Below are positions 9,814 through 43,400 of a DNA stretch of 64,000 bases, in pieces. This DNA comes from Escherichia coli. GTDB lineage: Bacteria > Pseudomonadota > Gammaproteobacteria > Enterobacterales > Enterobacteriaceae. Position 1 is the stretch's first letter, and every line of letters starts with the position of its first letter. The notes under the pieces are model-generated. The model was not told the DNA's origin. It did not search any database and was given only the letters and a program-made list of their open reading frames with translations. The DNA lies in assembly GCF_030013205.1 (NCBI RefSeq), contig NZ_CP122649.1; one strand, 5' to 3'. Position numbers and translations under genes: made by a program.

Positions 9814-10176
9814 ATGAGCGCCTACACGGTATCGCAACTGGCCCATAACGCTGGGGTGAGCGTACATATCGTGCGCGACTACCTGGTGCGCGGCTTGTTA
9901 CGGCCGGTGGCCTGCACCACGGGCGGCTACGGCGTGTTCGACGATGCGGCCTTGCAACGGCTGTGCTTCGTGCGCGCGGCCTTCGAGGCGGGTATCGGCC
10001 TGGATGCCCTGGCGCGGCTGTGCCGTGCGCTCGACGCAGCGGACGGCGCACAAGCCGCAGCGCAGCTTGCCGTGCTGCGCCAGTTGGTCGAGCGGCGGCG
10101 CGCGGCGTTGGCCCATCTGGACGCGCAACTGGCCTCCATGCCAGCCGAGCGGGCGCACGAGGAGGCATTGCCGTGA
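9814..10176 (+). CDS. merD: MerD co-regulator
   Basis: [40 protein letters not shown]...; AAGGAGG RBS; the track ORF has an upstream extension. Confidence 0.88.
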
Positions 10177-10409
10177 ACGCCCCTGACAAACTGCCGCCCG
10201 AGACGCGCCAACCCGTTTCCGGCTACCTGTGGGGTGCGCTGGCCGTGTTGACCTGCCCCTGCCATCTGCCGATTCTCGCCGCCGTGCTGGCCGGGACGAC
10301 CGCCGGTGCCTTCCTTGGCGAGCATTGGGGTGTTGCCGCGCTCGCGCTGACCGGCTTGTTCGTTCTGGCCGTAACGCGGCTGCTGCGCGCCTTCCGGGGC
10401 GGATCATGA
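10173..10409 (+). CDS. merE: MerE mercury transporter
   Basis: GTG start overlapping merD stop; 78-aa product [41 protein letters not shown]... Confidence 0.85.
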
Positions 10410-11113: not shown

Positions 11114-11187
11114 CAGTTCAATATCAGAAGTGATCTGCACCAATCTCGACTATGCTCAATACTCGTGTGCACCAAAGCGAGGTGAGC

Positions 11188-12439: not shown

Positions 12440-13259
12440 GGCACTGTTGCAAATAGTCGGTGGTGATAAACTTATCATCCCCTTTTGCTGATGGAGCTGC
12501 ACATGAACCCATTCAAAGGCCGGCATTTTCAGCGTGACATCATTCTGTGGGCCGTACGCTGGTACTGCAAATACGGCATCAGTTACCGTGAGCTGCAGGA
12601 GATGCTGGCTGAACGCGGAGTGAATGTCGATCACTCCACGATTTACCGCTGGGTTCAGCGTTATGCGCCTGAAATGGAAAAACGGCTGCGCTGGTACTGG
12701 CGTAACCCTTCCGATCTTTGCCCGTGGCACATGGATGAAACCTACGTGAAGGTCAATGGCCGCTGGGCGTATCTGTACCGGGCCGTCGACAGCCGGGGCC
12801 GCACTGTCGATTTTTATCTCTCCTCCCGTCGTAACAGCAAAGCTGCATACCGGTTTCTGGGTAAAATCCTCAACAACGTGAAGAAGTGGCAGATCCCGCG
12901 ATTCATCAACACGGATAAAGCGCCCGCCTATGGTCGCGCGCTTGCTCTGCTCAAACGCGAAGGCCGGTGCCCGTCTGACGTTGAACACCGACAGATTAAG
13001 TACCGGAACAACGTGATTGAATGCGATCATGGCAAACTGAAACGGATAATCGGCGCCACGCTGGGATTTAAATCCATGAAGACGGCTTACGCCACCATCA
13101 AAGGTATTGAGGTGATGCGTGCACTACGCAAAGGCCAGGCCTCAGCATTTTATTATGGTGATCCCCTGGGCGAAATGCGCCTGGTAAGCAGAGTTTTTGA
13201 AATGTAAGGCCTTTGAATAAGACAAAAGGCTGCCTCATCGCTAACTTTGCAACAGTGCC
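12440..13259 (+). mobile_element. IS26 copy 2 (820 bp, Tnp26 with G at position 184)
   Basis: Terminal repeats GGCACTGTTGCAAA; position-184 codon is GGC, unlike copies 1 and 3. Confidence 0.95.
12503..13207 (+). CDS. tnp26: IS26 transposase Tnp26
   Basis: Same 234-aa product as the other copies except residue 184. Confidence 0.95.
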   Translation: MNPFKGRHFQRDIILWAVRWYCKYGISYRELQEMLAERGVNVDHSTIYRWVQRYAPEMEKRLRWYWRNPSDLCPWHMDETYVKVNGRWAYLYRAVDSRGRTVDFYLSSRRNSKAAYRFLGKILNNVKKWQIPRFINTDKAPAYGRALALLKREGRCPSDVEHRQIKYRNNVIECDHGKLKRIIGATLGFKSMKTAYATIKGIEVMRALRKGQASAFYYGDPLGEMRLVSRVFEM

Positions 13260-13519
13260 CATTTATGAATGTTCCTGTTATGGCTTATGTTCAAGAAAGC
13301 ATTGCCCCTGAAATGATGGGCAAGGTGTTTTCCCTTTTGATGACCGCCATGACTCTTTCTATGCCGATAGGCTTACTTGTTGCAGGTCCGGTTGTTGAGG
13401 TTATAGGTGTTAATACATGGTTTTTCTGGTCTGGTGTTGCGTTGATAGTAAACGCTGTTCTCTGCCGCATTCTGACACGACGCTATGACAAAGTAACAAT
13501 GAAACCGCAAGTGGACTGA
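13260..13519 (+). pseudogene. mef(B): 3' remnant (260 bp) of macrolide efflux MFS gene mef(B), truncated by IS26
   Basis: Hydrophobic MFS C-terminus abutting IS26; matches the known IS26 / mef(B) remnant / sul3 arrangement. Confidence 0.55.
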
Positions 13520-13664
13520 AAAAAGGACCGGGTTGATGATAATTTGTAGTGGTGAGCTTCTGGGAGTACAAAACAAAGTGCTCAAAATTGTCGGGCTCAT
13601 GGCGTTTAACGGTATTAATTTCGCTTATAATAATCTTTCTATAATAGCCTAAAGGAGAATATCT

Positions 13665-14528
13665 ATGATACCTAATAGCGAAAATAAAAGAGTATGGTTT
13701 ATTACCGGAGCAAGCAAGGGGCTTGGCTATGCTTTTACATGCGCCGCCTTGAAAGCCGGGGATAAAGTTGTTGCAGTTGCAAGGACTATCGATAATTTGG
13801 CGAAGCTAGAAGAAACATATCAAGAGAGCTTACTGCCATTAAACCTCGATGTTACAGATAGGGAGGCTGTTTTTTCTACGGTTGAAACAGCAGTTAAACA
13901 TTTCGGTAGGCTTGATATTGTTGTTAATAATGCGGGTATCATGACTATGGGTATGATTGAAGAACTAAACGAATCCGATGCTCGGAAACTAATGGACACA
14001 AACTTTTTTGGAGCTCTTTGGGTTTGTCAGGCAGTGATGCCCTATTTGAGGTCGCAGCGTTCTGGACATATCATACAGATTACAAGCATTGGCGCTATTA
14101 TCTCGGGTCCGATGTCTGGTATTTACAGTGCAAGTAAATTTGCGCTGGAAGGAATGAGTGAAGCCTTAGCAAAAGAAGCGGAACATTTCGGAGTGAAACT
14201 CACTATGGTGGAACCAGGAGGATATTGGACAGATTTATACACTTCGATGAGTTACAGCAATCCATTAGATTCATACGGTACACTGCGCGATGAGCTGGCG
14301 AAACAGTATTCCGAAGATTCGGTCGATAGTGATCCTTCCTTGGCAGCGGAAGCCCTTATGAAATTAGTAGCCAGCAATAATCCGCCTTTGAGGCTTATCC
14401 TTGGCAGCATGGTATACGATTTGGCGATGGATACCTTAAAAGCACGGATGGCTACCTGGGAAGAATGGGAAGCTGTTAGCCGTGCATCAGAAAAGGCTAT
14501 TCCTGCACCGGAGAGATATGGAGTATAA
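13665..14528 (+). CDS. SDR-family short-chain dehydrogenase/reductase
   Basis: 287 aa; glycine-rich NAD(P)-binding motif FITGASKGLG, NNAG, catalytic Y..K (YSASK). Confidence 0.75.
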   Translation: MIPNSENKRVWFITGASKGLGYAFTCAALKAGDKVVAVARTIDNLAKLEETYQESLLPLNLDVTDREAVFSTVETAVKHFGRLDIVVNNAGIMTMGMIEELNESDARKLMDTNFFGALWVCQAVMPYLRSQRSGHIIQITSIGAIISGPMSGIYSASKFALEGMSEALAKEAEHFGVKLTMVEPGGYWTDLYTSMSYSNPLDSYGTLRDELAKQYSEDSVDSDPSLAAEALMKLVASNNPPLRLILGSMVYDLAMDTLKARMATWEEWEAVSRASEKAIPAPERYGV

Positions 14529-14565
14529 TACCAAACATGGTTTTTGAGGCAAGGACGAAACTATC

Positions 14566-14811
14566 ATGAAAATTGAAATTATGGAATATAACCCGGATTG
14601 GACAAAGAATTTTGAAGAAGAGAAAATAAAATTGCTCCATTTTTTCGGTTCTCATGCCGTAGCCATTGAACATATCGGAAGCACGGCGATACCCAATCAA
14701 CGGGCGAAACCGGTTATAGATATATTTATTGGCGTTTCGCCTTTTGCTGAACTACCTTTTATCAGCGCATTTTTAATGCAAAGGAGTATCACCACACTCC
14801 GACAGATATGA
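14566..14811 (+). CDS. GrpB-family-like small ORF (probably a truncated fragment)
   Basis: 81-aa ORF with GrpB-like N-terminus; too short for a full GrpB protein. Confidence 0.4.
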   Translation: MKIEIMEYNPDWTKNFEEEKIKLLHFFGSHAVAIEHIGSTAIPNQRAKPVIDIFIGVSPFAELPFISAFLMQRSITTLRQI

Positions 14812-15279
14812 CAGGCAGATATTTGTTTGCAAAATATACAAATGAAGTTTGGACCCATAATCTTCTTGCTTTGGTGTAGGTATAATACCCAAAAACGAAG
14901 TTTATGCGGAACAGGATAACACCTCGAAATCGGAGTTTATATGGCTTCGTGGGGGAGTTATGTGTTTGAGCTTTGTCGCATTAACGCGAATCAGGGGTTG
15001 ACGGCAGAAATAGACTGGAATTACACTTCTTGGAGTCGGCGTTGCCGGAAAATTCTGATTGGATTAGTTGTTCGGGGTGCGAAAACAGTCGTAGTTCGGG
15101 GAAAAAACCGAATTTTGACCCAAAACCGCGAAAAACTCGAAATGACAGTTCCTATCAGTTTTCATAATGAATTAAAACAAAAAAATTAGGCTGCAAAGAT
15201 AGGGAAAATGTGTCAATTTGCGTAAGTGATAATTAGTCAATTAAGATAAATGCTACTTTTGTAATCAAAGCAAAATGAT

Positions 15280-16071
15280 ATGAGCAAGATTTTTGGAATC
15301 GTAAATATAACCACCGATAGTTTTTCCGATGGAGGACTTTATTTAGATACAGATAAGGCAATTGAGCATGCTCTGCATTTGGTTGAAGATGGAGCAGATG
15401 TGATTGATTTGGGAGCCGCTTCCAGTAATCCTGATACAACTGAAGTGGGCGTTGTGGAAGAAATCAAAAGACTCAAACCTGTCATTAAGGCTTTAAAAGA
15501 AAAAGGCATTTCTATTTCTGTTGATACATTTAAACCTGAGGTTCAGAGTTTTTGCATAGAACAAAAGGTTGATTTTATTAATGATATTCAAGGTTTTCCT
15601 TATCCTGAGATTTATTCAGGCTTGGCAAAGTCAGATTGCAAACTTGTGTTGATGCACTCCGTTCAGCGAATTGGTGCAGCTACTAAAGTTGAAACGAATC
15701 CGGAAGAGGTTTTTACTTCCATGATGGAATTTTTTAAAGAAAGAATTGCTGCTTTAGTTGAGGCTGGTGTAAAGCGTGAACGAATTATTCTTGATCCGGG
15801 TATGGGCTTCTTTTTAGGCTCTAATCCAGAAACATCTATTCTTGTTTTGAAGCGTTTCCCTGAAATTCAAGAAGCTTTTAATTTGCAAGTAATGATTGCA
15901 GTGTCACGGAAATCATTCTTAGGTAAAATAACTGGAACCGATGTGAAATCTCGTTTAGCACCAACTCTTGCAGCAGAAATGTATGCATACAAAAAAGGTG
16001 CAGATTATCTCCGCACCCATGATGTTAAGTCTTTATCAGATGCCTTGAAAATATCCAAAGCCCTAGGTTAG
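15280..16071 (+). CDS. sul3: sulfonamide-resistant dihydropteroate synthase Sul3
   Basis: 263-aa product MSKIFGIVNITTDSFSDGGLYLDTDKAIEHALHLVEDGADVIDLGAASSNPDTTEV...; typical qacH-IS440-sul3 context. Confidence 0.85.
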   Translation: MSKIFGIVNITTDSFSDGGLYLDTDKAIEHALHLVEDGADVIDLGAASSNPDTTEVGVVEEIKRLKPVIKALKEKGISISVDTFKPEVQSFCIEQKVDFINDIQGFPYPEIYSGLAKSDCKLVLMHSVQRIGAATKVETNPEEVFTSMMEFFKERIAALVEAGVKRERIILDPGMGFFLGSNPETSILVLKRFPEIQEAFNLQVMIAVSRKSFLGKITGTDVKSRLAPTLAAEMYAYKKGADYLRTHDVKSLSDALKISKALG

Positions 16072-16317
16072 TTTTATTTTTTTAGCTTTCTAAATGAATA
16101 TGCTATACTTGCTCTGAAGTTGTGTTGGCGTACTTGACTTAGGTCTGGATCTTTCGAACTGTTACTAAGAGGGTAATCATAGCCAAACATAAACTGGAAA
16201 TGTCCTAATTCTAAACCTGTTCCAATACCTACACTATAATCAAGAGGACTTAAACTTCCATCACTTCCAAAAGGTTTTGTGTACTTCTCTTGAGTTTTCG
16301 TAGCTAAATAGTAGTGT

Positions 16318-17004
16318 TTGTTGGTAAATCCAAATAATCCAATATTCAATCTTGCGACCGGGAAAGTCCTCTTGAAAGTACCACAAGTTCGCGGGATGGA
16401 GTTTTATCCCAGCTGCATCGAGAAAGGCATGCGCAGTGAGCGTGCTCTCAAGCTCGCCATCGCCGAAATGTATGTCAAAGGAGTAAGTACCCGCAGGGTC
16501 TCGGATATCGTCGAAATTCTTTGTGGCACCGAAGTCAGCTCGTCCCAGGTCAGCAGGCTGGCAAAGGAGCTCGATGAAGAGATTACGTCTTGGAAGGCGC
16601 AGCCTGTCGGACAGATTCAATACTTGGTACTTGATGCGACCTATGAATCGGTTCGCGTCGGTTCCCATGTGGTCAAGCAGGCGCTTCTAGTGGCTATTGG
16701 CGTTGATTACAGCGGGAATCGGCATATTCTTGACGCCGAAGTCGCGAACAGTGAGGCAGAGGTAAACTGGCGTTCCTTTCTCGAGGGTCTCGTACGACGA
16801 GGGATGCACGGCCTGCGAATGATCACCAGTGATGACCACTCAGGACTGCGCGCGGCAATCGATGCTGTCTTCCCTGGAATTCTGTGGCAACGCTGCCAGT
16901 TTCATCTGCAGCAGAATGCCCACTCCTACGTCACGAAAAAAGATGAGATCCCGCTGATAGCCGCTGATATTCGGAAGGTGTTCAATCGGAATATGTCAAG
17001 ATAG
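16318..17004 (+). pseudogene. IS256-family transposase fragment (IS440-like), N-terminus missing
   Basis: C-terminal DDE region ...ERALKLAIAEMYVKGVSTRRVSD...WQRCQFHLQQNA...; fragment length only. Confidence 0.55.
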
Positions 17005-17250
17005 TTTATGCCAGATTTTTGAGAGGTTTGCATCAAGCAGCCTTCGAAAGAGGACGGCATGACATTGAGACCGGCAAGGCGTCGTAGATACGCACTTTCC
17101 CAGTACGCCACCGTAAGGGGTTTTTCTCTTTGGCAGCAAGAATGGTTTGGTTTCTTTTTTCCTCGGCGCCGTAGGCGTCCGACTAACACCTGAATTAAGC
17201 CGCGCCGCGAAGCGGCGTCGGCTTGAATGAACTGTTAGATGCCAGCCCGA

Positions 17251-17583
17251 TCAATGTGCGCTGACCTTGGATAGCAGATTTAGAACGGCGACGCCACTAA
17301 CGATAAGTCCCATGCCAACGAACGCCCACAAGTCTAGTTTCTGGCCATGGAAGATCCAAGCGATAGCTGCCACAAGTACGATGCCGAGGCCAGCCCAAAC
17401 AGCATAAGCAATGCCGACCGGGATGGACTTGAGTGCGAGAGAGAGGAAATAGAACGCAAGCCCGTAGCCAGCCACAACTACAACAGAAGGAACTAACTTG
17501 GTGAATCCATGGCTGGACTTCAGTGCGGAAGTTGCGACGACCTCACCAAATATTGCAATAGCCAGAAAGAGCCAGTTCTTCAC
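17251..17583 (-). CDS. qacH: SMR-family quaternary ammonium compound efflux protein (qacH/qacL type)
   Basis: 110-aa product from GTG start [24 protein letters not shown]...; four TM segments. Confidence 0.75.
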
Positions 17584-17752
17584 GTGCAATCTCCTCTACG
17601 GTATGAAGGATAAATAGTGGTGGCTATGAGTTGCCAAAAACAGTCTTGCGGCTGTCGATTTTCTGTGAGCATACGCAACGCCAAATCTGGCATCTAACGC
17701 TTGAGTTAAGCCGCGCCGCGAAGCGGCGTCGGCTTGAACGAATTGTTAGACA

Positions 17753-18544
17753 TTATTTGCCGACTACCTTGGTGATCTCGCCTTTCACGTAGTGAACAAA
17801 TTCTTCCAACTGATCTGCGCGGGAGGCCAAGCGATCTTCTTCTTGTCCAAGATAAGCCTGTCTAGCTTCAAGTATGACGGGCTGATACTGGGCCGGCAGG
17901 CGCTCCATTGCCCAGTCGGCAGCGACATCCTTCGGCGCGATTTTGCCGGTTACTGCGCTGTACCAAATGCGGGACAACGTAAGCACTACATTTCGCTCAT
18001 CGCCAGCCCAGTCGGGCGGCGAGTTCCATAGCGTTAAGGTTTCATTTAGCGCCTCAAATAGATCCTGTTCAGGAACCGGATCAAAGAGTTCCTCCGCCGC
18101 TGGACCTACCAAGGCAACGCTATGTTCTCTTGCTTTTGTCAGCAAGATAGCCAGATCAATGTCGATCGTGGCTGGCTCGAAGATACCTGCAAGAATGTCA
18201 TTGCGCTGCCATTCTCCAAATTGCAGTTCGCGCTTAGCTGGATAACGCCACGGAATGATGTCGTCGTGCACAACAATGGTGACTTCTACAGCGCGGAGAA
18301 TCTCGCTCTCTCCAGGGGAAGCCGAAGTTTCCAAAAGGTCGTTGATCAAAGCTCGCCGCGTTGTTTCATCAAGCCTTACGGTCACCGTAACCAGCAAATC
18401 AATATCACTGTGTGGCTTCAGGCCGCCATCCACTGCGGAGCCGTACAAATGTACGGCCAGCAACGTCGGTTCGAGATGGCGCTCGATGACGCCAACTACC
18501 TCTGATAGTTGAGTCGATACTTCGGCGATCACCGCTTCCCTCAT
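17753..18544 (-). CDS. aadA1: aminoglycoside 3''-adenylyltransferase AadA1
   Basis: 263-aa product MREAVIAEVSTQLSEVVGVIERHLEPTLLAVHLYGSAVDGGLKPHSDIDLLV... Confidence 0.9.
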   Translation of the reverse strand: MREAVIAEVSTQLSEVVGVIERHLEPTLLAVHLYGSAVDGGLKPHSDIDLLVTVTVRLDETTRRALINDLLETSASPGESEILRAVEVTIVVHDDIIPWRYPAKRELQFGEWQRNDILAGIFEPATIDIDLAILLTKAREHSVALVGPAAEELFDPVPEQDLFEALNETLTLWNSPPDWAGDERNVVLTLSRIWYSAVTGKIAPKDVAADWAMERLPAQYQPVILEARQAYLGQEEDRLASRADQLEEFVHYVKGEITKVVGK

Positions 18545-18636
18545 GATGTTTAACGCCTGAGCTCAGCCGACCGAAACCGCGTAGCGGTTTTGGGTCGGCT
18601 GCAGCGATTTGTTGGGCGATAGCTTGCCACATTCTC

Positions 18637-19893
18637 TCAACGATTGGGATTTGATGTACTTTCCGCACTTTGTAGCGCGACCACATCATGCTCCCCCTGG
18701 CCGCGAGAGCCCTTCACTCGGGAAACACAAGACAGACCGAGCACGACTGTTGCAAGGGTCAAACAGTACACGACAACCGGCCAAGCCGTGTTGCGCGGCA
18801 ACAGCGAAATGATCAACGTTCCGATGCTTCCTAGCAGTACACCGCCCAAGCAGAAGTAGACTGCCGTGACCGTTCCAGCAACATGGTCGAATCCTCGAAG
18901 AGCGCCATTGGGCGCCACAGATACCGCTGTGGCGACACCAATACCCACTAGCCACATTGGAGCAATAAAGCCTAACACGGACTGCAAAGCCCATATTTCG
19001 GTGATGGCAAGCAATACTGCTCCAGCTATCAGGCATCCCATTCCCATTCGCAAGACACTTGGGCTGCCCCACTTGGGTATCACACGCCCCATAAAACGAG
19101 CCGTAAACACCATGGCAATTGCCACTGTGGCGAACAGCAGGCTGAAGCCAAGCTGAGACACACCTTGCCTGCCCATCATTAGTCCGGGCGCAATGGAGAA
19201 AAAGACGAAGAAGCTACCCATTCCAGCGGCGTAACACAACGTGTACAACCAGAAGTTCAGGCACTTAACGGGGAGTAGCAGCTGCGACCATTGCAAGCCC
19301 GCAACTCGTTGCACCCGGGTTTCAGGCCAGAATCGCCACGCTGCTGCAGATGCAGCGATCATGCCCAAACCTAGAAACGCAAAGATAGCCCGCCACCCAA
19401 GCCACATGTCGACGAGCGCTCCGAGCAATGGGCCTACCGCCGGGACCATGGCCAGCATGGATCCGAGTATGCCGTAAATGACATTACTTTCCTCGCGACC
19501 TGCGTAAATGTCACGTACTGTTGCAAATGTGGAAACAAGGCACGCCGAGGCACCACAAGCCTGAAGAATCCGAAGCCCCAGAAAGACTTCAGCCGATGAC
19601 GTAAGAGCGAGGCCCATTGACGCCACAACGTAGGCGAGGCCACCTCCCAGTAGAACGGGGCGGCGCCCCAGTCGGTCCGATAGCGGTCCAAACAAGAGCT
19701 GACCGGCACCAATCATGACCAAGTACGTTGTCAGCGTAAGCTGAATTGTGCTCGCTGTCGTACCAAGCGCGTTTGGCATAAACGGCACTGCTGGCAAGTA
19801 CATGTCCATGCCGAGTGATGCCAATAAATCGAACGGTGATAACAACAACACCGTGGCGGCAAGGGAGTACCGCCAACTAAAGTTTTTTGAGCT
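18637..19893 (-). CDS. cmlA1: chloramphenicol efflux MFS transporter CmlA1
   Basis: 419-aa product from GTG start (V)SSKNFSWRYSLAATVLLLSPFDLLASLGMDMYLPAVPFM...; the track ORF includes a 16-codon leader. Confidence 0.85.
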   Translation of the reverse strand, partial: SSKNFSWRYSLAATVLLLSPFDLLASLGMDMYLPAVPFMPNALGTTASTIQLTLTTYLVMIGAGQLLFGPLSDRLGRRPVLLGGGLAYVVASMGLALTSSAEVFLGLRILQACGASACLVSTFATVRDIYAGREESNVIYGILGSMLAMVPAVGPLLGALVDMWLGWRAIFAFLGLGMIAASAAAWRFWPETRVQRVAGLQWSQLLLPVKCLNFWLYTLCYAAGMGSFFVFFSIAPGLMMGRQGVSQLGFSLLFATVAIAMVFTARFMGRVIPKWGSPSVLRMGMGCLIAGAVLLAITEIWALQSVLGFIAPMWLVGIGVATAVSVAPNGALRGFDHVAGTVTAVYFCLGGVLLGSIGTLIISLLPRNTAWPVVVYCLTLATVVLGLSCVSRVKGSRGQGEHDVVALQSAESTSNPNR

Positions 19894-20157
19894 CACGAAA
19901 CCATCTCCTTGAACAAAGGATTTGGCGGCGCTCCCGTAGAGCAAAAGGATTCATGAGAACGCCGCAACAACCGAAAAATGAAGGTTGCTGCGGCTTACTT
20001 GTCTGCGTTCTTGGAAGTGCTCATCTGCTGACTATCTCATGATTGAATTTGAATCGTAACAACTTTCAAGCAACTCTGCAAGGAGCCTTATTGTGCGCCC
20101 AACGCCGGAGTTAAGCCGCCGCGCGTAGCGCGGTCGGCTTGAACGAATTGTTAGACA

Positions 20158-20949
20158 TCATTTACCAACTGACTTGATGATCTCGCCTTTCACAAAGCGA
20201 ATAAATTCTTCCAAGTGATCTGCGCGTGAGGCCAAGTGATCTTCTTTTTGTCCCAGATAAGCTTGCTTAGCTTCAAGTAAGACGGGCTGATACTGGGCAG
20301 GTAGGCGTTTTATTGCCCAGTCGGCAGCGACATCCTTCGGCGCGATTTTGCCGGTTATTGCGCTGTACCAAATGCGGGACAACGTAAGCACTACATTTCG
20401 CTCATCGCCGGCCCAGTCGGGCTGCGAGTTCCATAGCTTCAAGGTTTCCCTCAGCGCCTCGAATAGATCCTGTTCAGGAACCGGGTCAAAGAATTCCTCC
20501 GCTGCCGGACCTACCAAGGCAACGCTATGTTCTCTTGCTTTTGTAAGCAGGATAGCTAGATCAATGTCGATCATGGCTGGCTCGAAGATACCCGCAAGAA
20601 TGTCATTGCGCTGCCATTCTCCAAATTGCAGCTCGCGCTTAGCCGGATAACGCCACGGGATGATGTCGTCATGCACGACAAGGGTGACTTCTATAGCGCG
20701 GAGCGTCTCGCTCTCGCCAGGGAAAGCCGAAGCCTCCATAAGGTCATTGAGCAATGCTCGCCGCGTCGTTTCATCAAGCTTTACGGCCACAGTAACCAAC
20801 AAATCAATATCGCTGTATGGCTTCAGGCCGCCATCCACTGCGGAGCCGTACAAATGCACGGCCAGCAACGTTGATTCCAGATGGCGCTCAATGACGCTTA
20901 GCACCTCTGATAGTTGGTTCGAAATTTCGATGGTCACCGCTACCCTCAT
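20158..20949 (-). CDS. aadA2: aminoglycoside 3''-adenylyltransferase AadA2
   Basis: Product MRVAVTIEISNQLSEVLSVIERHLESTLLAVHLYGSAVDGGLKPYSDIDLLV... Confidence 0.9.
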   Translation of the reverse strand: MRVAVTIEISNQLSEVLSVIERHLESTLLAVHLYGSAVDGGLKPYSDIDLLVTVAVKLDETTRRALLNDLMEASAFPGESETLRAIEVTLVVHDDIIPWRYPAKRELQFGEWQRNDILAGIFEPAMIDIDLAILLTKAREHSVALVGPAAEEFFDPVPEQDLFEALRETLKLWNSQPDWAGDERNVVLTLSRIWYSAITGKIAPKDVAADWAIKRLPAQYQPVLLEAKQAYLGQKEDHLASRADHLEEFIRFVKGEIIKSVGK

Positions 20950-21006
20950 GATGTCTAACACCAGAATTAAGCCGCGCCGCGAAGCGGCGTCGGCTTGAAT
21001 GACTTG

Positions 21007-21615
21007 TTAGCGCCCACCTGCGACGCCAACCTCTTGCCACTGATAGTACTGCTTAGTAGCAATGGCCAGCATATCCAGGTCCTCCGGCGTGTCTCCGTAC
21101 GCGTAGATGGTCGGATATGTCGCCAGGTCGTAGCGCTCACGGACCAAGCGAGCCTTCTCCGTCAAGACGCACTGCCGCCCTTCATAGCGGCCCGTTAGGA
21201 TTCCGTCCGACTGTTGCAAGGAAGAACAGATGAGCTCAACGCCGTGCGAGTCGCACCACGGCTCCAAGTAAGCCTCAAGTCCGCCGGAAACAACGACAAC
21301 CTTGTGCCCCTGCGCTTTGTGCCATGCGATGCGCTGCATTGCCTCGCCGCGGAGGGTATTGGGCAGGTAGCTCTGAGCGAAGTCACGACCTTGGGCCTCC
21401 AGGACCGAGGCCGGGATGCCGCTGTAAGCGAAGCGAACGATGACGCGACGGATCAGGGTGCCAGACAAGATCCCAATCTTATACCCAAGCACGAGCGGCG
21501 CCAGAAGCAGTTGTCCCACAAGCAGTCGACGTCGGCTCACGGACCGCCGCACAAAATCCGGCATCGTCTCGCGAGTGGTAATTGTGCCATCGAAGTCAAA
21601 GAGTGCGAGAGACAT
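21007..21615 (-). CDS. psp: HAD-family phosphatase cassette gene (psp)
   Basis: 202 aa, N-terminal DxDGT motif (LFDFDGTIT); sits between estX and aadA2 as in sul3-linked arrays. Confidence 0.7.
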   Translation of the reverse strand: MSLALFDFDGTITTRETMPDFVRRSVSRRRLLVGQLLLAPLVLGYKIGILSGTLIRRVIVRFAYSGIPASVLEAQGRDFAQSYLPNTLRGEAMQRIAWHKAQGHKVVVVSGGLEAYLEPWCDSHGVELICSSLQQSDGILTGRYEGRQCVLTEKARLVRERYDLATYPTIYAYGDTPEDLDMLAIATKQYYQWQEVGVAGGR

Positions 21616-21710
21616 GCGTTGTGGGCGCTAACGCCTTGCTCACCGGAAAATTGCGAGCGCAGCGAGTAATTTTTCCGGTGCAGCAACTTGTTGTACGGTG
21701 CAACCGATAG

Positions 21711-22553
21711 CTATGACGTTTGCCCCTTAATCGCCTGGATAATCCTCGGCCAGTCTTCATGATGCAACTCATGTCCCGTGCCTTCGAGTGTCAGCATTTT
21801 TGAACCACGAATCGCATCTTTCAGTGCCAACCCATGCACATAAGGAAGTACAGGATCCTCCGTGCCGTGAATGATCAAAGTTGGTACAGCTATCTCATTT
21901 AATCTCCCGAGCCATCTCTCGCCACCACCTAAAGTAGTGTGGTTGAATGTTGTCAGGATATTCGGAGTGCGATCAAAATTTAACTCAGCGATGTTTTGTA
22001 TCTTCTCAGCGTCAAAAGCATGCGCAGTACCTGAGTTGATTCGCCACGCTCCGACCTGATACGCGACGACAGCATCTCTATCAGACCAATCCAGCGATTC
22101 CGCCCGTTGGTGATACTCAATGATGGCAGGATCAAAAGCGGGCATATCCGGATCTGCATCTGCAAGCCGTTCTGAAGCAATCAGCGTCAAGCTCTTCACA
22201 CGTTTCGGATACTTGAGAGCTACAAGCTGGGAAAGAAATCCCCCCAAAGACATGCCGACTAAATGAGCAGCTTCCAGACCATAACCATCAATGACGCGAA
22301 CCACATCATCTGCTAATTCTTCAACGGAATATGGAGCCTGACCTGGCTCATAGCTTGTTGATTTCCCGGTATCACGGTGGTCGTACCGGATCACATAGCG
22401 ACCCATTTTGGCAAGTTGGGAACAAAACTCATCAGGCCACCACACCGCAGACGACATTGCCCCCATGATCAGAATAATGGGTTCATGGGCCGGGTCGCCG
22501 AATGATTCGGTATAGAGTGAAATCGCTTTATCAACAACTACCTTTTCTTTCAT
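21711..22553 (-). CDS. estX: alpha/beta-hydrolase cassette gene (estX putative esterase)
   Basis: GxSxG-type nucleophile elbow (GMSLGG); first cassette after attI1; start chosen at MKEKVVV, the track ORF extends further upstream. Confidence 0.7.
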
Positions 22554-22583
22554 ACTTAAATTGCCTTCGAGTTCTACGTACAA

Positions 22584-22650
22584 CTTTGTTTTAGGGCGAC
22601 TGCCCTGCTGCGTAACATCGTTGCTGCTCCATAACATCAAACATCGACCC
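22584..22650 (-). other. attI1 recombination site of the class 1 integron
   Basis: Reverse complement of the 5'-conserved segment ...GCAGTCGCCCTAAAACAAAGTT at the cassette junction. Confidence 0.7.
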
Positions 22651-22719
22651 ACGGCGTAACGCGCTTGCTGCTTGGATGCTCGAGGCATAGACTGTACAAA
22701 AAAACAGTCATAACAAGCC

Positions 22720-23257
22720 ATGAAAACCGCCACTGCGCCGTTACCACCGCTGCGTTCGGTCAAGGTTCTGGACCAGTTGCGTGAGCGCATACGCTACTTG
22801 CATTACAGTTTACGAACCGAACAGGCTTATGTCCACTGGGTTCGTGCCTTCATCCGTTTCCACGGTGTGCGTCACCCGGCAACCTTGGGCAGCAGCGAAG
22901 TCGAGGCATTTCTGTCCTGGCTGGCGAACGAGCGCAAGGTTTCGGTCTCCACGCATCGTCAGGCATTGGCGGCCTTGCTGTTCTTCTACGGCAAGGTGCT
23001 GTGCACGGATCTGCCCTGGCTTCAGGAGATCGGAAGACCTCGGCCGTCGCGGCGCTTGCCGGTGGTGCTGACCCCGGATGAAGTGGTTCGCATCCTCGGT
23101 TTTCTGGAAGGCGAGCATCGTTTGTTCGCCCAGCTTCTGTATGGAACGGGCATGCGGATCAGTGAGGGTTTGCAACTGCGGGTCAAGGATCTGGATTTCG
23201 ATCACGGCACGATCATCGTGCGGGAGGGCAAGGGCTCCAAGGATCGGGCCTTGATGT
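22720..23257 (+). pseudogene. intI1: class 1 integron integrase intI1, truncated after about 179 codons by IS26
   Basis: [53 protein letters not shown]... running into the IS26 terminal repeat at 23258. Confidence 0.9.
22806..22835 (-). promoter_or_regulatory. integron cassette promoter Pc, weak variant (PcW: TGGACA, 17 bp, TAAACT)
   Basis: Reverse complement reads TGGACATAAGCCTGTTCGGTTCGTAAACT inside the intI1 coding region; no TGN extension. Confidence 0.7.
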
Positions 23258-24077
23258 GGCACTGTTGCAAATAGTCGGTGGTGATAAACTTATCATCCCC
23301 TTTTGCTGATGGAGCTGCACATGAACCCATTCAAAGGCCGGCATTTTCAGCGTGACATCATTCTGTGGGCCGTACGCTGGTACTGCAAATACGGCATCAG
23401 TTACCGTGAGCTGCAGGAGATGCTGGCTGAACGCGGAGTGAATGTCGATCACTCCACGATTTACCGCTGGGTTCAGCGTTATGCGCCTGAAATGGAAAAA
23501 CGGCTGCGCTGGTACTGGCGTAACCCTTCCGATCTTTGCCCGTGGCACATGGATGAAACCTACGTGAAGGTCAATGGCCGCTGGGCGTATCTGTACCGGG
23601 CCGTCGACAGCCGGGGCCGCACTGTCGATTTTTATCTCTCCTCCCGTCGTAACAGCAAAGCTGCATACCGGTTTCTGGGTAAAATCCTCAACAACGTGAA
23701 GAAGTGGCAGATCCCACGATTCATCAACACGGATAAAGCGCCCGCCTATGGTCGCGCGCTTGCTCTGCTCAAACGCGAAGGCCGGTGCCCGTCTGACGTT
23801 GAACACCGACAGATTAAGTACCGGAACAACGTGATTGAATGCGATCATGGCAAACTGAAACGGATAATCAACGCCACGCTGGGATTTAAATCCATGAAGA
23901 CGGCTTACGCCACCATCAAAGGTATTGAGGTGATGCGTGCACTACGCAAAGGCCAGGCCTCAGCATTTTATTATGGTGATCCCCTGGGCGAAATGCGCCT
24001 GGTAAGCAGAGTTTTTGAAATGTAAGGCCTTTGAATAAGACAAAAGGCTGCCTCATCGCTAACTTTGCAACAGTGCC
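23258..24077 (+). mobile_element. IS26 copy 3 (820 bp, Tnp26 with N at position 184)
   Basis: Terminal repeats GGCACTGTTGCAAA; followed by TAGCGGGG, identical to the 8 bp preceding copy 1. Confidence 0.95.
23321..24025 (+). CDS. tnp26: IS26 transposase Tnp26
   Basis: 234-aa product; AAC codon at position 184. Confidence 0.95.
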   Translation: MNPFKGRHFQRDIILWAVRWYCKYGISYRELQEMLAERGVNVDHSTIYRWVQRYAPEMEKRLRWYWRNPSDLCPWHMDETYVKVNGRWAYLYRAVDSRGRTVDFYLSSRRNSKAAYRFLGKILNNVKKWQIPRFINTDKAPAYGRALALLKREGRCPSDVEHRQIKYRNNVIECDHGKLKRIINATLGFKSMKTAYATIKGIEVMRALRKGQASAFYYGDPLGEMRLVSRVFEM

Positions 24078-24851
24078 TAGCGGGGTAATGTTGAGGCAGC
24101 GCATGGCTCGGGCAAACTGGGTTTCACCGGGACCAGTGGTAGCGTGCTTATTATTGACTCTGAATACGCTGGCTTTATCGCTGTAAAGGATCATGGGCTT
24201 ACCGTATTTCTCGATATAGCCACGGGTCGCTTCAAAATAGCTAAAGGTGGACTCAGATTTAACAAACAGCAGGTGCATCAGACGACTGGTGGCATCGTCG
24301 ACATATACAAGTGCCGTACAAGGCCGACCCCGGTTTTCAAACCAGTGATGGTCACAGCCGTCAATCTGTATAAGCTCGCCAGTACAGGGCCGCCGGTAAC
24401 GGGGCTGATGAATTTTCGGTGCGCGTTGTCTTCGGGGGATCCAGAGTCCGGCTTTTATCATAAGGCGTCTGATGGTTTCCTTGCCCAGGACCAGACCGTG
24501 AACTTCCTCCAGTTTTTCCCGGGCCAGCGTGGGGCCAAAATCGCGGTAGCGTTCTCGTATGATACTCAGTGCCTGGTCAGTCAGTGATGTGGGCAACAGG
24601 CGGTTGCCAGTGCGACCGCGACTCTGGTTGTTCATACCAAGCGGCCCGGACTGGCGATAACGCTTCAGCAGACGGCTGCAATGACGTGGCGTGATGCCGA
24701 GCATCTCGGCAGCCTGGCCAGGACGCAGGTTACGTTCAACGACATCCTGAAGAATTTTGAGGCGGTTGATTTCTTTCACGGTGAACATCCCGGCGTCATG
24801 TATAGCCATAGAAAACTCCTCATCAGGAAAAGCGAGTCGTTGACTAGGCAT
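24078..24851 (-). pseudogene. 5' half of the integrase-type (ISNCY/IS1202-like) transposase gene split by the IS26-bounded insertion
   Basis: N-terminal HTH plus start of rve core (...ELIQIDGCDHHWFENRGRPCTALVYVDDATSRLMHL...); frame-continuous with 6336-7009; boundaries of the element itself not determined. Confidence 0.75.
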
Positions 24852-25303: not shown

Positions 25304-26230
25304 ATGGAACTTCGCCAGTTACGTTATTTTGTCCGTATTGTGGAAACCGGCAGTATGGGCAGCGCGGCGCTTGATCTCGACATCGGTGTCTCAGCGCTCA
25401 GTCAACAGATGACAAGGCTGGAAAATGAACTCGCCATTCGTCTGTTGCAACGAACCTCGCGTGGTGTAACGCCAACTAACTCGGGTCTGGCCTTTTACTC
25501 ACAGGCACAGCTGGCGTTGCGTCATGCTGATGATGCCATTCTTGCTGCGCGCGATGCGCGTCTGTCCGGACACGTCAGCGTCGGTATGGCCCCCAGTACA
25601 GCCTCCGTCCTGGGTGTGCCGTTTATTCATGCCATGCGGGCACATTACGCCGACGTTCGCCTGCATGTGGTGGAAAGCCTGTCAGGTAATCTGGAACGGA
25701 TGATCAACACCCGTCAGATTGATCTGGCCGTTGTTTTTCGGAAAGAAAAGCACCTGCGCTGGAGCGCCAGGCCAGTTCTCGAAGAGCAGCTTTTTCTGAT
25801 TGGCACACATGATCTGCTGACGGATATTCCGGATGACACCATAACCCCTGCTCAACTGGCGAATATTCCCCTGATCATGCCAAGCTCAGGCCACGGCTTG
25901 CGCGGCCTACTGGAGGCTATTAGTCAGGAACACGGGCTGAAGGTTGATATCGCCACGGAAATTGACGGCCTGGCGTTACTGATGCGCGCCGTTGGCAGCG
26001 GACTCGGCGCAACATTACAACCCGGAGCAGCCATTTCGCATCTTGAGAGTGAATCATTAAGAGTGATCGGCATCCATAATCCCATACTCAGTCGCCCCAA
26101 TTTTCTGGTCAGCCTATCGGACGATGAACTCCCACCCGCCGCTCTTGCAGCCCGCGTGATACTTACAAAAGTCATGCGTAAACTTGTTGAAATCGGCCAT
26201 TGGCCGGGCGCAACCATTTACGCTCCCTAA
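25304..26230 (+). CDS. tcuR: LysR-family transcriptional regulator of the tricarballylate/citrate locus
   Basis: 308 aa with LysR HTH (MELRQLRYFVRIVETGSMGSAA...); immediately upstream of tcuABC. Confidence 0.8.
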   Translation: MELRQLRYFVRIVETGSMGSAALDLDIGVSALSQQMTRLENELAIRLLQRTSRGVTPTNSGLAFYSQAQLALRHADDAILAARDARLSGHVSVGMAPSTASVLGVPFIHAMRAHYADVRLHVVESLSGNLERMINTRQIDLAVVFRKEKHLRWSARPVLEEQLFLIGTHDLLTDIPDDTITPAQLANIPLIMPSSGHGLRGLLEAISQEHGLKVDIATEIDGLALLMRAVGSGLGATLQPGAAISHLESESLRVIGIHNPILSRPNFLVSLSDDELPPAALAARVILTKVMRKLVEIGHWPGATIYAP

Positions 26231-26327: not shown

Positions 26328-27729
26328 ATGGTTGATGTACTGGTGATTGGCGGTGGTAATGCCGCGCTATGCGCCGCCTTAACCGCTCGTGAGGCAGGAG
26401 CTTCCGTGCTGCTGTTAGAGGCTGCGCCTAGGGAATGGCGCGGCGGGAATTCCCAACACACGCGCAATTTACGCTGTATGCACGATGCACCACAGGATGT
26501 GCTGGTCGAGAGTTATCCCGAAGAGGAATTCTGGCAGGATCTCTGGCGTGTCACCGAAGGCAATACCAATGAAGCGTTGGCGCGCTTGGTGATTCGAACC
26601 TCTTCCCAGTGTCGTGACTGGATGCGTAAGCATGGGGTTAATTTTCAGCCTCCGCTTTCCGGCGCGCTGCATGTGGCGCGCACCAATGCCTTCTTCATGG
26701 GCGGTGGTAAAGCCCTCGTGAACGCCTATTACCGCAGTGCAGAAAAGCTGGGGGTACAGATTCGCTACAGCACGCCGGTACAGGCGCTTGAATTGCACAA
26801 CGGCAAATTCGTCGCAGCCCTGGCAGGTCACGAACGCATTGAGGCGAAAGCCTGCGTACTCGCCGCCGGCGGGTTTGAATCCAACCGTGAATGGCTACGC
26901 GACGCCTGGGGAGAGAACACTCGTGGCGAATGGCCAGCCGATAATTTCCTTATCCGCGGCACCCGCTTTAATCAGGGCGTCTTGCTCAAATTTATGATCA
27001 ATGCCGGGGCAGACATTATCGGTGATCCGTCTCAGTCCCACTGTGTGGCGATCGACGCACGGGCACCGTTGTACGACGGCGGAATTTGTACCCGCGTGGA
27101 TTGTGTCTCACTGGGTGTGGTAGTTAACCGGGATGCAGAACGCTTTTACGATGAAGGGGAAGATTTTTGGCCGAAACGCTATGCCATCTGGGGACGACTG
27201 GTTGCCCACCAACCGGGGCAGATTGGCTACTCCATTATCGACAGCAAAGCGATCGGTCACTTTATGCCGCCAGTTTTCCCCGGCGCACAGGCCAATACGC
27301 TAAGAGATCTGGCCCGCCAGTTGGGGCTGGATCCCGAACACTTTACCCACACCGTGGAACACTACAATCAGGCCTGTCAGCTGGGTCAGTTTGATCACAC
27401 TAAGCTGGACAACTGCGCGACGCAGGGCCTGACGCCACCGAAAACTCACTGGGCACGGCCTATTGATACCCCCCTACTACGGTTATGCCCTGCGACCAGG
27501 GATCACCTTTACCTATCTCGGACTGAAAGTGAATGAACACGCTGCGGTCCATTTCGCAGGCACGCCCAGCTGTAACCTTTTCGTTGCCGGTGAAATGATG
27601 GCTGGCAACGTACTGGGCAAGGGCTATACCGCCGGGGTCGGCATGTCCATTGGCACCACGTTTGGTCGCATCGCAGGTAAAGAAGCCGCGCAGGCAGCAC
27701 GCAAGGAGGCGCATCATGAAGCAGCTTGA
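26328..27729 (+). pseudogene. tcuA: FAD-dependent tricarballylate dehydrogenase TcuA, reading frame shifted near 27469-27474
   Basis: FAD-binding N-terminus VLVIGGGNAALCAALTA; C-terminal 88 aa continue in the +1 frame (track ORF 27463-27729) after a run of six C. Confidence 0.75.
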
Positions 27730-28855
27730 AAAGTTGATTATCGAGGCCAAAATTCTCACCGAACCAGAGGCTGAAGTCGAGCGGGTGATGCAGGTTTGTA
27801 ACGCATGTCGCTACTGTGAAGGATTTTGCGCCGTGTTCCCGGCAATGACTCAACGACTGGAATTTGGCAAAGCCGACATTAACTATCTGGCAAACCTGTG
27901 CCATAACTGCGGCGCTTGCCTGCACGCCTGCCAGTATGCTCCACCCCATGAGTTTGCGATCAACGTGCCGAAAGCAATGGCGGAAGTGCGTCTGGAAACG
28001 TATCAACACTACGCGCAACCGGCGGCCTTCGGAGCGCTGTATCGCCAGGCTGGCGTTACCGTGACGCTGGCACTGGTCTTTAGTCTGATCCTCTTTTTAC
28101 TCCTCGCGATGGGGCTAAAGGGATCGCTACTCCATCCGCCGCTGGCCGGTGATTTCTACCAAATCTTCCCGCACAACCTGCTGGCATGGATGTTTGGATC
28201 GGTTTTCATGCTGGCGATCGGTTTACTAATGGCAGGGGTGATCCGCTTCTGGCGCGAGATCTCTCCCGTCGGGCCGCGTCCGGCGGAAATTGCCGAAGCG
28301 TCGCACAACGCGCTGACGCTGAAATACCTCGACGGCGGACATGGAAAAGGCTGCAACGAGGCGGACGATGCTTTCACATTGATGCGTCGTCGTTTCCACC
28401 ATTTCACCTTCTACGGCTTTATGCTCTGTTTCGCCGCGACCGTGGTGGCGACGGGTTACCACTACTTCGCCGGCTGGGAAGCCCCCTACCCGTTCTTCAG
28501 CGTGCCGGTCATGCTTGGCACGCTCGGAGGAATCGGTTTAATTGTCGGCCCGGCAGGCCTGCTGTGGTTAAACCTTAAGCGCTCGTCACTGCATGGCGAC
28601 GCGCGACAGAAACCGATGGATCGCGGTTTTATTTTACTGCTGCTCCTGACCAGCCTGACCGGTATAGGTTTGCTGGCGGGAAGAGACACCTCATGGATGG
28701 GGATCCTGCTTGCCATCCATCTTGGTGTGGTCATGGCGCTTTTTTTGACCATTCCATACGGAAAATTTGCCCACGGATTTTACCGCTGCGCGTCTTTACT
28801 CAAATGGGCGATTGAGAAGCGACGTGGAAAACAGGCGGGGGTCGCAGGCGACTAA
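27716..28855 (+). CDS. tcuB: TcuB (membrane iron-sulfur protein; plasmid CitB homolog)
   Basis: 379-aa product [42 protein letters not shown]... with Cys clusters and TM segments. Confidence 0.8.
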
Positions 28856-28909: not shown

Positions 28910-30205
28910 ATGACTCAACAACCATCGCGCGCTGGCACGTTCGGCGCAATACTGCGTGTGACCAGCGGTAATTTTCTCGAACAGTTCGATTTTTTCCTGT
29001 TTGGTTTTTACGCCACTTATATCGCAAAGACGTTTTTTCCTGCCGAAAGTGAGTTTGCCGCATTAATGCTTACTTTTGCCGTTTTTGGCTCCGGATTTTT
29101 AATGCGCCCTATCGGGGCCGTGGTGTTGGGCGCATATATCGACAGGATCGGCCGACGGAAAGGGCTGATGATCACCCTGGCGATTATGGGCTGCGGCACG
29201 TTGCTCATCGCCCTCGTGCCGGGTTATCAGACTATCGGCCTGCTGGCTCCCGTGCTGGTCCTGGTGGGGCGTCTGCTACAGGGATTTTCTGCTGGCGTCG
29301 AACTGGGCGGCGTCTCTGTTTATCTTTCTGAGATCGCCACGCCAGGCAATAAAGGCTTTTACACCAGTTGGCAATCGGCCAGCCAGCAGGTGGCGATTGT
29401 CGTCGCAGCGCTGATCGGCTACGGTCTGAATGTCACGCTGGGACACGATGAAATCTCCGAATGGGGTTGGCGAATCCCGTTCTTCATTGGCTGCATGATT
29501 ATTCCGCTGATTTTTGTTCTTCGACGTTCGCTACAGGAAACTGAAGCCTTTTTACAACGTAAACACCGTCCGGACACCCGGGAAATTTTTACCACCATTG
29601 CTAAAAACTGGCGCATCATCACCGCGGGTACCCTGCTGGTGGCGATGACGACCACGACCTTTTATTTTATTACTGTCTATACCCCCACTTACGGGAGAAC
29701 GGTGTTGAACCTGAGCGCACGTGACAGCCTAGTAGTCACCATGCTGGTAGGGATTTCTAACTTCATCTGGCTGCCGATTGGCGGCGCTATCTCTGATCGG
29801 ATCGGGCGACGCCCGGTGCTGATGGGCATCACCTTGCTCGCCCTCGTCACCACCTTGCCGGTGATGAACTGGCTTACCGCTGCCCCTGACTTCACCCGCA
29901 TGACGCTGGTGCTGCTCTGGTTCTCGTTCTTTTTTGGCATGTATAACGGCGCGATGGTGGCGGCCCTGACTGAAGTGATGCCGGTTTATGTCCGAACTGT
30001 GGGTTTTTCGCTGGCCTTTAGTCTCGCCACGGCGATTTTCGGCGGCCTGACACCAGCCATCTCCACCGCATTGGTCCAGTTGACTGGAGATAAAAGTTCT
30101 CCTGGATGGTGGCTAATGTGCGCTGCGCTGTGCGGACTCGCTGCGACGACAATGCTGTTTGCTCGTCTCAGTAGTGGTTATCAGACAGTAGAGAATAAGC
30201 TCTGA
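28910..30205 (+). CDS. tcuC: citrate/tricarballylate-proton symporter (MFS; TcuC/CitA)
   Basis: 431-aa MFS product [43 protein letters not shown]... Confidence 0.85.
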
Positions 30206-40450: not shown

Positions 40451-43400
40451 TTACTTCTTATTTTCATTCAGCCAGCTTTTAGCTTTCTCAATTCTCGACT
40501 GATATGGTTCATTTGTATTATTCAGGTTTGACTTCATAAAGCTCACGAATGCATCTGCTTTATCCGGCCCAAAACGTGGATCATCGGTCAGTTGCTGACG
40601 AATCGCACGTTCTGAGTTTTGTGATGCAGTCTCATACGCCTTGATCCCATCCCCCCCCATATCCTTATACCTGCTGGTCACCTCGCTAACACCATCTGAC
40701 ATTTGCAGGTGATTTCCAACCTTGCCCAATAGCGAGCTCGGCATATTTTGTGGATTCGAAGCATCGTTTGCCAAAGATGAAGGGGTGGTCAGGATACCCA
40801 TACCTGAGAGCATGTCGTTTACAGGTTTAGCTCCGATAACGTCAAGTCCTCTGGCAACACTCTCCTGCCCCGATAAAAGCGTACTACCAATAACACCACG
40901 TTCTGTATTGGACTCAATTTTATTACCAACAAGGAGATCCGTCGTGGTTTGGGTTCGTTGCCCAACGAGCCCGCCGCCAGAACCACCTTCCCCAAGATTC
41001 GCCCTCACAACTGAGTCAAGAGAACCTGAAGCCTTGTTATGCATGTTGAAACCTTCATGGATATTCTGGAGATCGTTCATCCCCCAGCGAACGTTATAGT
41101 GACTCAGTTCGGAGAGGATATTTTGAGTATCCGCTTTCAGTTGTTCTTTCTCAGCGCCGGTTGCCATTGTACTGGCGCCATAGGTAAACACAGCTTGTGC
41201 GGCCAGTTCCGCACGTTTGTCATCCGGCTTTTTGGTAGGATCATTTGCAATCCTGCCAAAATAATTCGGGAGGTTGCCTGATATACCGCGTATCTGGTTA
41301 TCTCCGTACATATTATTCAGTTTGTCGCTGATAGTACCCATGCCCGAAGTCGCATGCTTACCGCCCGAACCAGCCTGTAACTGGTCGAAAGTTTGGTTGG
41401 CGTGCTGAACGTCCACCCCAGCCCCCTGAACTCTTCCCACAGTTTCATTCGTCACAACAGGGGTATTCTTCTCCAATGACGAGAGCACATTCTGGTTCTC
41501 TTCGCTATAGGATTTATTTACATTACCTTGATGAATGCCCTGAATATCTTCTTTGCTGATCTTGTCCACATTGTACGGAGTTACACCAGACTCAGTTTGT
41601 CCACCAACATGCTGGTTAGCATTTTGTTGGTTTTGTACCAGCCCGGCTTTTGCCTGAGCATCCATACTTTGCCCCACGTCAGCAACACGATCAGCGCTCA
41701 TTACGCTGGACGTATTTACATGTTCTGGGGTGCGATCCTGCGCCTGTGCAATCGTGTTAATACCCGAGGCATCACCAGTGATTCGGTCAAGCTGATTAGT
41801 AATCGGCAGCATCTGTTGAGCGTTACCGCCAAAGTCAGCAACCAGCCCTTTAAGCAGGCTGGAAGTTTCACGCAGATCCTGTTTATTGCTCTCAGCCGTT
41901 TCACCTCGGGCAGTATCAATCGCTATTTTTTGCTCACTAAAGTCACGTGTCGTTGCCACCAGCGCATCTGTACGTTGGAGTTGTGAACCCAACTGAGTGC
42001 TGGCCTTAAATGTGTCATTATAGGAATTGAACTTCTCCATAAAGGCATTCTCATCAAGACCATTTTTCCGTGCAAAATTACGCACATCTTCATCGCTAAA
42101 GTTTTTATTACGGATAGAATCGGAGAATCTGTCCAGGTTGATAGCCTGTCTTGAGTCGAGTGTCATGCCAGTATTGGCGCTGGCGTTCGTTGAAAGTGAC
42201 GTCGACAAGTTTTCGGCCATTGTCTGTGTGGACTGGTTCATTTTTGTTGCAGCTTCTTTGAATGCATTGGTCTGTGCAAACTGATCACTGTTTATCTGAG
42301 CAGCCGCTTTAGTCATTTGGTCAGTCAGTCCTGAGTTTTCAGTCAATTGAGTCGTAATAGCTTTACTCAAATCAGTTAAGAGACTTTCATTCCCAGAATT
42401 ACTTTTCGTGATCCCTGATCCAACTTGCCCCCCCGCTTTTATTCCTAGGCTATCCATTACTTTCTGAGCGAGACCTCCTCCTCCTCCTTTTCCAAGTTTT
42501 TCTTCACCACCAAGTCCCAAACTGCCATTGAGCAGAAGATTTGACACCACGCCAGCTAATTGCTGCGAATTAATTCCATGCTTCGCCCCTACGCTATTCG
42601 CGATGTTTGCACCGGCCTGGTCAGTAAATGATTTCAAGCTTTGCAGGTTGGAGGTAAATTGCTGGCCTGATTGCCCCGTTCGGCCAACTTCACTCATCTG
42701 GTTGAAGGCCTGCTGGAATGTGTTACTTGCTGCGCTCATGGCTGAAGAGGTAAATGCTGCCCCTTGCCCCTGGCTTGACGCGATACTTGAACCGGCATTC
42801 CACGTACCGAGTCGGAAATTACTGGAGTCCATGGCCCCGCCACCACTGAATCCTTGGCCGGTGCTTGTCAGCGCGGTACGATTCACATCCCCAAACGATG
42901 ATTTTCCGCTGTTTGGCGCATCCCACACTTTCGGCGTGAGGTGGCTGGAGTCCACTGGCGCTGGTGGTGTGACTCCTTTCATCGCGTTCATCATTGGATG
43001 AATGGATTGCGTCATCAGGAACAGCGTCAATACAGGGATAAGAGCATAGAGTGCTGATGCTACTGATAAATAAGAGCTGTATGTTTCGGCAAGCCCTGGC
43101 AAACCCATCCATGTCACCGCGTTACTCTGACTATTCAATGTGCTCCATGTATCAAGATCTGCGGTCGCCACTTTCTTCACGTAGGCATTCACCATAACCG
43201 CAGTAATAGGCCACATATTTACGAAAAGAATAAGCTGGAGATATTTTGCAGCAGCGGCCACACCATTTCCCCCGAGAGCCAAAAGCATGAGCAATGCAAA
43301 TGGGGCAACCATGTACGCAAACATCTCAAGAAACGCGATGGCTGCACCGGACAATTGCAGCCAGAGCTGCCCCTGAGATGCCATGGTATTCGTACGCTTT

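Follow-up and report, generated by a model that had tools for sequence, protein, structure and literature searches.

The tricarballylate dehydrogenase gene tcuA is split at a run of six C in the window, the whole 64,000-nucleotide stretch of plasmid DNA that was analysed, and this split in a well-known gene is most likely a sequencing artefact. The plasmid probably carries eight C at this site together with an intact tcuA, the six C of the window and the seven C of the corresponding RefSeq record both being Nanopore under-calls. In nearly all of the scenarios weighed here, six C is not the true length of the tract.

The ORF list contains a 402-aa ORF (26328..27536, +) and an 88-aa ORF (27463..27729, +), exactly as the original prediction had described for a tcuA broken at a C6 tract, and the TcuA profile spans both of them. 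These two ORFs are one gene, truly split in the window sequence. The six C were read directly from the bases at 27469–27474, within GATACCCCCCTACTAC. The two ORFs differ in frame (26328 mod 3 = 0 and 27463 mod 3 = 1), which places the 3′ piece in the +1 frame, and the TTG at 27463 is merely a mechanical ORF start. When aligned to NCBIfam NF006130, the TcuA equivalog, the first ORF covers profile positions 5–385 and the second covers 385–465, so the pieces abut exactly at the C run. Pfam FAD_binding_2 is split alike, with positions 1–342 in the 5′ piece and 353–404 in the 3′ piece. The 402-aa ORF alone scores 636.4 bits against NF006130, and the protein repaired by a CC insertion scores 785.7 bits against NF006130 / TIGR02485, the cut-off being 369 in both cases. 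With a score above this curated cut-off, the identification of the gene as that of FAD-dependent tricarballylate dehydrogenase holds.

The 5′ part of tcuA (26328..27474, +) contains codons 1 to ~382, remains in frame through the C tract, and matches both NF006130 and FAD_binding_2. After the frameshift site (27469..27474, +), which is C8 in the intact allele copies and C7 in the RefSeq record, frame 0 continues into an out-of-frame tail, LLRLCPATRDHLYLSRTESE (27475..27536, +), with 20 unrelated residues and a premature TGA at 27534–27536. The 3′ part (27475..27729, +) continues in the +1 frame with codons ~385–467 and the stop, containing the C-terminal FAD-binding segment. One unbroken tcuA ORF of ~467 aa that includes this segment is thus absent from the window. 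The tract lies at codons 382–384 of 467, near the 3′ end of tcuA, and the strain has no second copy of the gene.

The other members of the tcu module are intact. The gene for the LysR-type regulator of the tcu genes, tcuR (25304..26230, +), is a 308-aa ORF, and its RefSeq accession, TcuR WP_050153619.1, is found also in intact relatives. The 4Fe-4S membrane protein that reoxidises TcuA is encoded by tcuB (27716..28855, +), which scores 709.5 bits against NF011607 (cut-off 524), and the tricarballylate/citrate:proton symporter of the MFS family by tcuC (28910..30205, +), which scores 729.5 bits against NF011656 (cut-off 445). Their products are WP_050153617.1 and WP_050153616.1, respectively, as in the relatives. 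Both scores exceed the NCBIfam cut-offs, in agreement with the earlier statement that tcuB and tcuC stay intact. The gene order tcuR-tcuA-tcuB-tcuC is the expected tcu context, and the RefSeq names agree with it. The sequence AAGGAGG comes before the tcuB ATG (27716), which has a 14-nt overlap with the end of tcuA at its natural stop. A search for inverted repeats on either side of the tcu module found none.

In PMC10468695, the Salmonella tcuABC system is described as consisting of the TcuA dehydrogenase, the TcuB FADH2:quinone oxidoreductase, and the TcuC transporter. The same paper cites Lewis and Escalante-Semerena (2006, PMC1540016) for TcuA of S. enterica LT2 as an FAD-dependent dehydrogenase that converts tricarballylate to cis-aconitate. 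The TcuA, TcuB, and TcuC of the window fall in the same NCBIfam equivalogs as their LT2 counterparts, and the operon layout is the same as that of LT2 tcuRABC. Unlike in LT2, the module of the window is plasmid-borne and lies beside an IS26-bounded resistance region, its tcuA frame is interrupted, and its activity is a predicted one.

The intact length of the tract can be read in close relatives. TcuA WP_050153618.1 is encoded by the IncHI1-type plasmids p14ODMR (MG904992), pB71 (KP899806), pH226B (KX129784), and pEcoEC16b (CP189736), whose nucleotides match the window outside the tract, and which share with it the order of the four tcu genes and identical TcuR, TcuB, and TcuC proteins. The tract is C8 in p14ODMR, pB71, and pEcoEC16b, where GAT ACC CCC CCC TAC encodes Asp-Thr-Pro-Pro-Tyr, and is the synonymous ACC CCC CCT (C7T) in pH226B. 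What sets the window apart from these four plasmids is its C6, which results in the 402-aa product without the C-terminal FAD-binding segment. When CC was inserted into the window tract, the product became 467 aa long and 100% identical to WP_050153618.1. The original prediction had named five C as the length that would restore a single ORF, but it is C8 that restores the known protein, whereas C5 would delete one proline. Because the intact copies carry C8, the window is 2 nt short (C8 to C6) rather than 1 nt over C5. No indel other than the tract separates the window from p14ODMR or pB71 in 21.4 kb; the contraction is confined to the homopolymer, the rest of the gene being identical to that of the intact relatives.

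Larger collections gave the same length. Identical TcuB was found in ~770 collection blocks, with a 467-aa TcuA alongside in 16 of 16 among the matches listed, and the tract was C8 in all six contigs carrying identical TcuB in which it was read directly. One metagenome contig of the same tcuA allele has C8 as well. Among the nine other complete records at ≥99% identity, none is frameshifted. The exact truncated 402-aa product of the window had no match in public assemblies, and a scan of genome contigs for the tract returned no match. Other tcuA alleles break the C run synonymously, with ACG CCC CCC in chromosomal E. coli and ACG CCC CCT in R27 and several F-type plasmids. The tract is therefore not kept across alleles, most of which have it interrupted (ACG CCC CCC, ACG CCC CCT, or ACC CCC CCT).

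A second version of the plasmid differs from the window at the tract. In a base-by-base comparison, the window equaled positions 1–64001 of NZ_CP122645.1 except at the tract, which is C6 in the window and C7 in the record. NZ_CP122645.1 is the 216,724-bp plasmid ‘unnamed2’, of IncHI1 type, from E. coli ETEC4079 of pig faeces in Belgium, and its tcuA is annotated as ‘frameshifted’ by PGAP. The plasmid is present in the sister strains ETEC 4077, 4078F, and 4079 with lengths of 216,724, 216,725, and 216,724 bp, respectively, a 1-nt difference (PMC10151945 and its supplement), and the window, which differs from the ETEC4079 record, probably comes from the copy of one of the sister strains. As the tract is C6 and C7 in two versions of one plasmid, either its length is misread in one or both of them, or no site but the tract varies.

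The genome of the strain was assembled from Nanopore reads of R9.4.1 flow cells at ~195x, using Bonito 0.4.0, Trycycler, and Medaka 1.5.0, without Illumina (PMC10151945). Residual errors in homopolymer length are documented for assemblies made with R9.4.1 only; they amount to ~15 in each Salmonella genome, over 3,002 loci, and recur at particular tracts (bioRxiv 10.1101/2022.05.03.490560). The present case resembles such assemblies in its ONT-only data, in an indel that shortens a long G/C homopolymer and nothing else, and in two versions that differ in length, but is unlike them in that the other C8 runs of this assembly are correct.

We propose that the plasmid DNA would have an eight-C run in the cell, where ACC CCC CCC would encode Thr-Pro-Pro and tcuA would be intact. 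R9.4.1 basecalling and Medaka polishing would have shortened this run to C6 in one version and to C7 in the other, with no short reads to correct it. A true C8 is favored because real frameshifts are rare among carriers, while R9.4.1 under-calling of an 8-nt G/C run is far commoner. On the other hand, C8 to C6 would be a −2 error, and such errors are not as common as those of −1, which speaks against an under-call. Between a homopolymer indel and a genuine inactivation, which had both been put forward for the split, the indel is better supported by the R9.4.1-only data, the C6/C7 disagreement, and C8 in the intact copies; inactivation stands as a serious rival, as C7 is present in an independent contig. 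With C8, tcuRABC would be functional. Tricarballylate would enter the cell through TcuC and be oxidised to cis-aconitate by TcuA, according to its predicted activity, and TcuB would pass on the electrons from TcuA.

Homopolymers elsewhere in the same assembly were compared with those of relatives. The traG-like conjugation gene of the window contains a C8 run (40651..40658) and a C7 run (42428–42434), both of which are in frame and match relatives, so that they are usable as internal controls. The window, the RefSeq record, p14ODMR, and pB71 do not differ in the length of this C8 run. Seven of the eight other G/C runs of at least 7 nt that were checked match relatives, including two C8 runs (40651–40658 in the window and 89771–89778 in CP122645.1). 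The concordance of C8 runs elsewhere indicates that under-calling is not general in the assembly. A 50-kb sample of the chromosome of the same assembly contained zero annotated frameshifts.

Some homopolymers of the plasmid record are shorter than their counterparts in other plasmids. Homopolymers of NZ_CP122645.1 are 1 nt shorter than in pHCM1 at four sites (~77608, 78949, 82788, and 94936). One of these changes gives G6 versus G7 in 214 of 220 plasmids (G6 in 6/220) and leaves a RepB gene of 615 bp in place of 882 bp, and another gives A8 versus A9 in 212 of 214 plasmids (A8 in 2/214) and shortens a small ORF; both are rare contractions that fit the pattern of under-calls. Reading all four contractions against the Sanger-sequenced pHCM1 as an ONT signature was partly withdrawn, since the indels between p14ODMR and pHCM1 are about as numerous. 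One of the four, a C7 to C6 change that splits a PAPS-reductase-family gene, was likewise rejected as an ONT error, because it is a natural allele found in 86 blocks of the collection, among them S. Typhi assemblies of the Illumina era. The wide spread of this C6 allele indicates that homopolymers of IncHI1 plasmids vary in nature. The other two ‘frameshifted’ plasmid genes were also discarded as ONT errors, their regions being 100% identical to pHCM1 and to CP030182.1, respectively.

Incidentally, the aadA genes of the window (17753–18544 and 20158–20961, −) are flagged as ‘frameshifted’ in RefSeq, yet their ORFs in the window are full length with 263 and 267 aa. Thus, the aadA1/aadA2 flags look like annotation artefacts, and they were not retained as a sign of poor assembly.

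Frameshifted copies of tcuA were found in other public data, and across public assemblies frameshifts recur at the tract in three or more allele backgrounds. A 42-kb Logan contig from run SRR12858220 encodes a C7-derived product of 399 aa and matches the window base for base along 12.6 kb save C7 versus C6. The cleanness of this contig implies that its reads were accurate, and hence that there is probably a real C7 allele of this exact sequence, the platform of the run being judged from contig quality. Searches with the small downstream fragment ORF returned C7 with the same flanking sequence in SRR26188678, C7 in three ENA metagenome assemblies that share a 99.2% identical allele, and C9, a +1 change, in SRR10682468. 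Two complete records have a −1 change, p417H-90 with C7 and pSCU-111-2 with ACG followed by C5; no usable literature was found on p417H-90 or on the sequencing method of SCU-111. ERR11040748, a visibly error-prone public contig, has C6 at the tcuA tract along with a C5-to-C4 contraction in tcuB. Public assemblies thus contain C6, C7, C8, and C9, a range confounded by sequencing error. Frameshifted copies are uncommon, making up well under a few percent of carriers, and only a handful were found.

Another variant on the plasmid bears on its lineage. In tet(B) (2852–4057), a G-to-A change at 3834 results in Tet(B) S328N, which is unique to this plasmid among 876 PLSDB tet(B) plasmids. An unrelated run, ERR2710939, has a short-contig assembly that also encodes this protein, which suggests that S328N is probably real and a lineage marker. 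SRR12858220 was absent among the carriers of Tet(B) S328N, and a link between this run and the ETEC lineage was not found. The lineage-marking SNPs are synonymous and start 1.2 kb past the retrievable SRR12858220 flank.

If the lineage has truly lost one C (C8 to C7), TcuA would be inactive, and the C6 of the window would be a further 1-nt Nanopore under-call. We consider this genuine pseudogene unlikely, though by no means negligible. C7 is found with identical flanks in SRR26188678 and in the SRR12858220 contig, which is independent and otherwise perfect, and −1 changes at the tract are found in other alleles, namely those of the three metagenome assemblies (99.2% allele), p417H-90, and pSCU-111-2. 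Because the −2 state of the window is easier to reach if a real C7 was under-called by one base, the probability of a pseudogene was raised somewhat; a single −1 step is more typical of ONT than −2, a G7 to G6 change is present elsewhere in the assembly, and the other C8 runs were called correctly. However, the frameshifted copies amount to a handful versus the ~770 blocks with identical TcuB, TcuA is intact in all of the matches listed, and 0/9 of the other complete records at ≥99% identity are frameshifted. Moreover, the SRR12858220 contig, whose platform was judged from its quality, comes from outside the S328N carriers, and no link to the ETEC lineage was found for it. If the frameshift were real, TcuR, TcuB, and TcuC would be kept while tricarballylate oxidation would be lost, which is a small metabolic change. 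The frame-0 product would then lack the C-terminal FAD-binding segment and would almost certainly be inactive, and tcuB would keep its own AAGGAGG and the ATG at 27716 but lose the 14-nt overlap coupling with tcuA.

The inactivation had also been called possibly phase-variable, for which nothing was found beyond the recurrent frameshifts at the tract in public assemblies, the tract being unconserved and near the 3′ end. Slipped-strand mispairing at C8 would in that case switch tcuA off and on, so that C6, C7, and C8 would coexist in the culture, and the assemblies would sample different majority states; we regard such a switch as very improbable. Equally hard to credit is a genuinely hypermutable C8 of plasmid tcuA, by which tricarballylate catabolism would be turned off time and again, and perhaps on again, in IncHI1-type plasmids of livestock-associated Enterobacteriaceae, with C6 and C7 as real heterogeneity. 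Slippage is feasible in a G/C run of this length (8), all of C6, C7, C8, and C9 have been seen at the site in public assemblies, and the two versions of the plasmid differ at the tract alone. Like the poly-G/C contingency loci of Neisseria, Haemophilus, and Campylobacter, tcuA has a G/C homopolymer in its coding region whose lengths differ among public sequences. Unlike those loci, its tract is near the 3′ end (codons 382–384 of 467), far from the 5′ end and the promoter, it is unconserved across alleles, and its variants are rare, several of the variant contigs coming from low-coverage or error-prone data. That most alleles break the run synonymously is the opposite of selection for a switch. 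Tricarballylate is a known metabolic inhibitor, and an OFF state with tcuC intact would import it without degradation. A real frameshift might otherwise be overcome in translation, if the ribosome slips by +1 on CCC-C ahead of the rare CUA, or in transcription, if RNA polymerase slips, and either would yield some full-length enzyme. Judging from the codons, tRNA-Pro shifting by +1 on CCC C while the rare CUA is in the A site could lead to DTPYYG... in the C6 version, and C CCC CCU in the C7 version fits X XXY YYZ, at which a −1 shift could lead to the wild-type peptide. The shift needed would, however, differ between two versions of the same plasmid. The homologues are in a single frame, so the frameshift is not conserved with the slippery site, and no stimulatory element was identified. 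C runs of 6–7 are poor substrates for transcriptional slippage. We therefore give recoding next to no credence.

An under-called C8 remains our preferred explanation, and the split is best treated as a quality flag. A loss of tricarballylate catabolism in porcine ETEC, if inferred from the window or from the RefSeq pseudogene call, would probably be misleading. For curators, the expected length of the tract is eight C, and the recurrence of frameshifts at this site is useful for curating tcuA pseudogenes.

The resistance region beside the tcu module was also delimited. It is a 17-kb multiresistance region (7010–24077) with IS26 copies at its bounds, and its cargo includes blaTEM-1, mer remnants, and a sul3-type class 1 integron, estX-psp-aadA2-cmlA1-aadA1-qacL. 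The region is inserted in an ISNCY-family transposase gene ~1.2 kb upstream of tcuR, and this ISNCY gene is intact in p14ODMR. An 8-bp direct duplication, TAGCGGGG, flanks the resistance region at 7002–7009 and 24078–24085.
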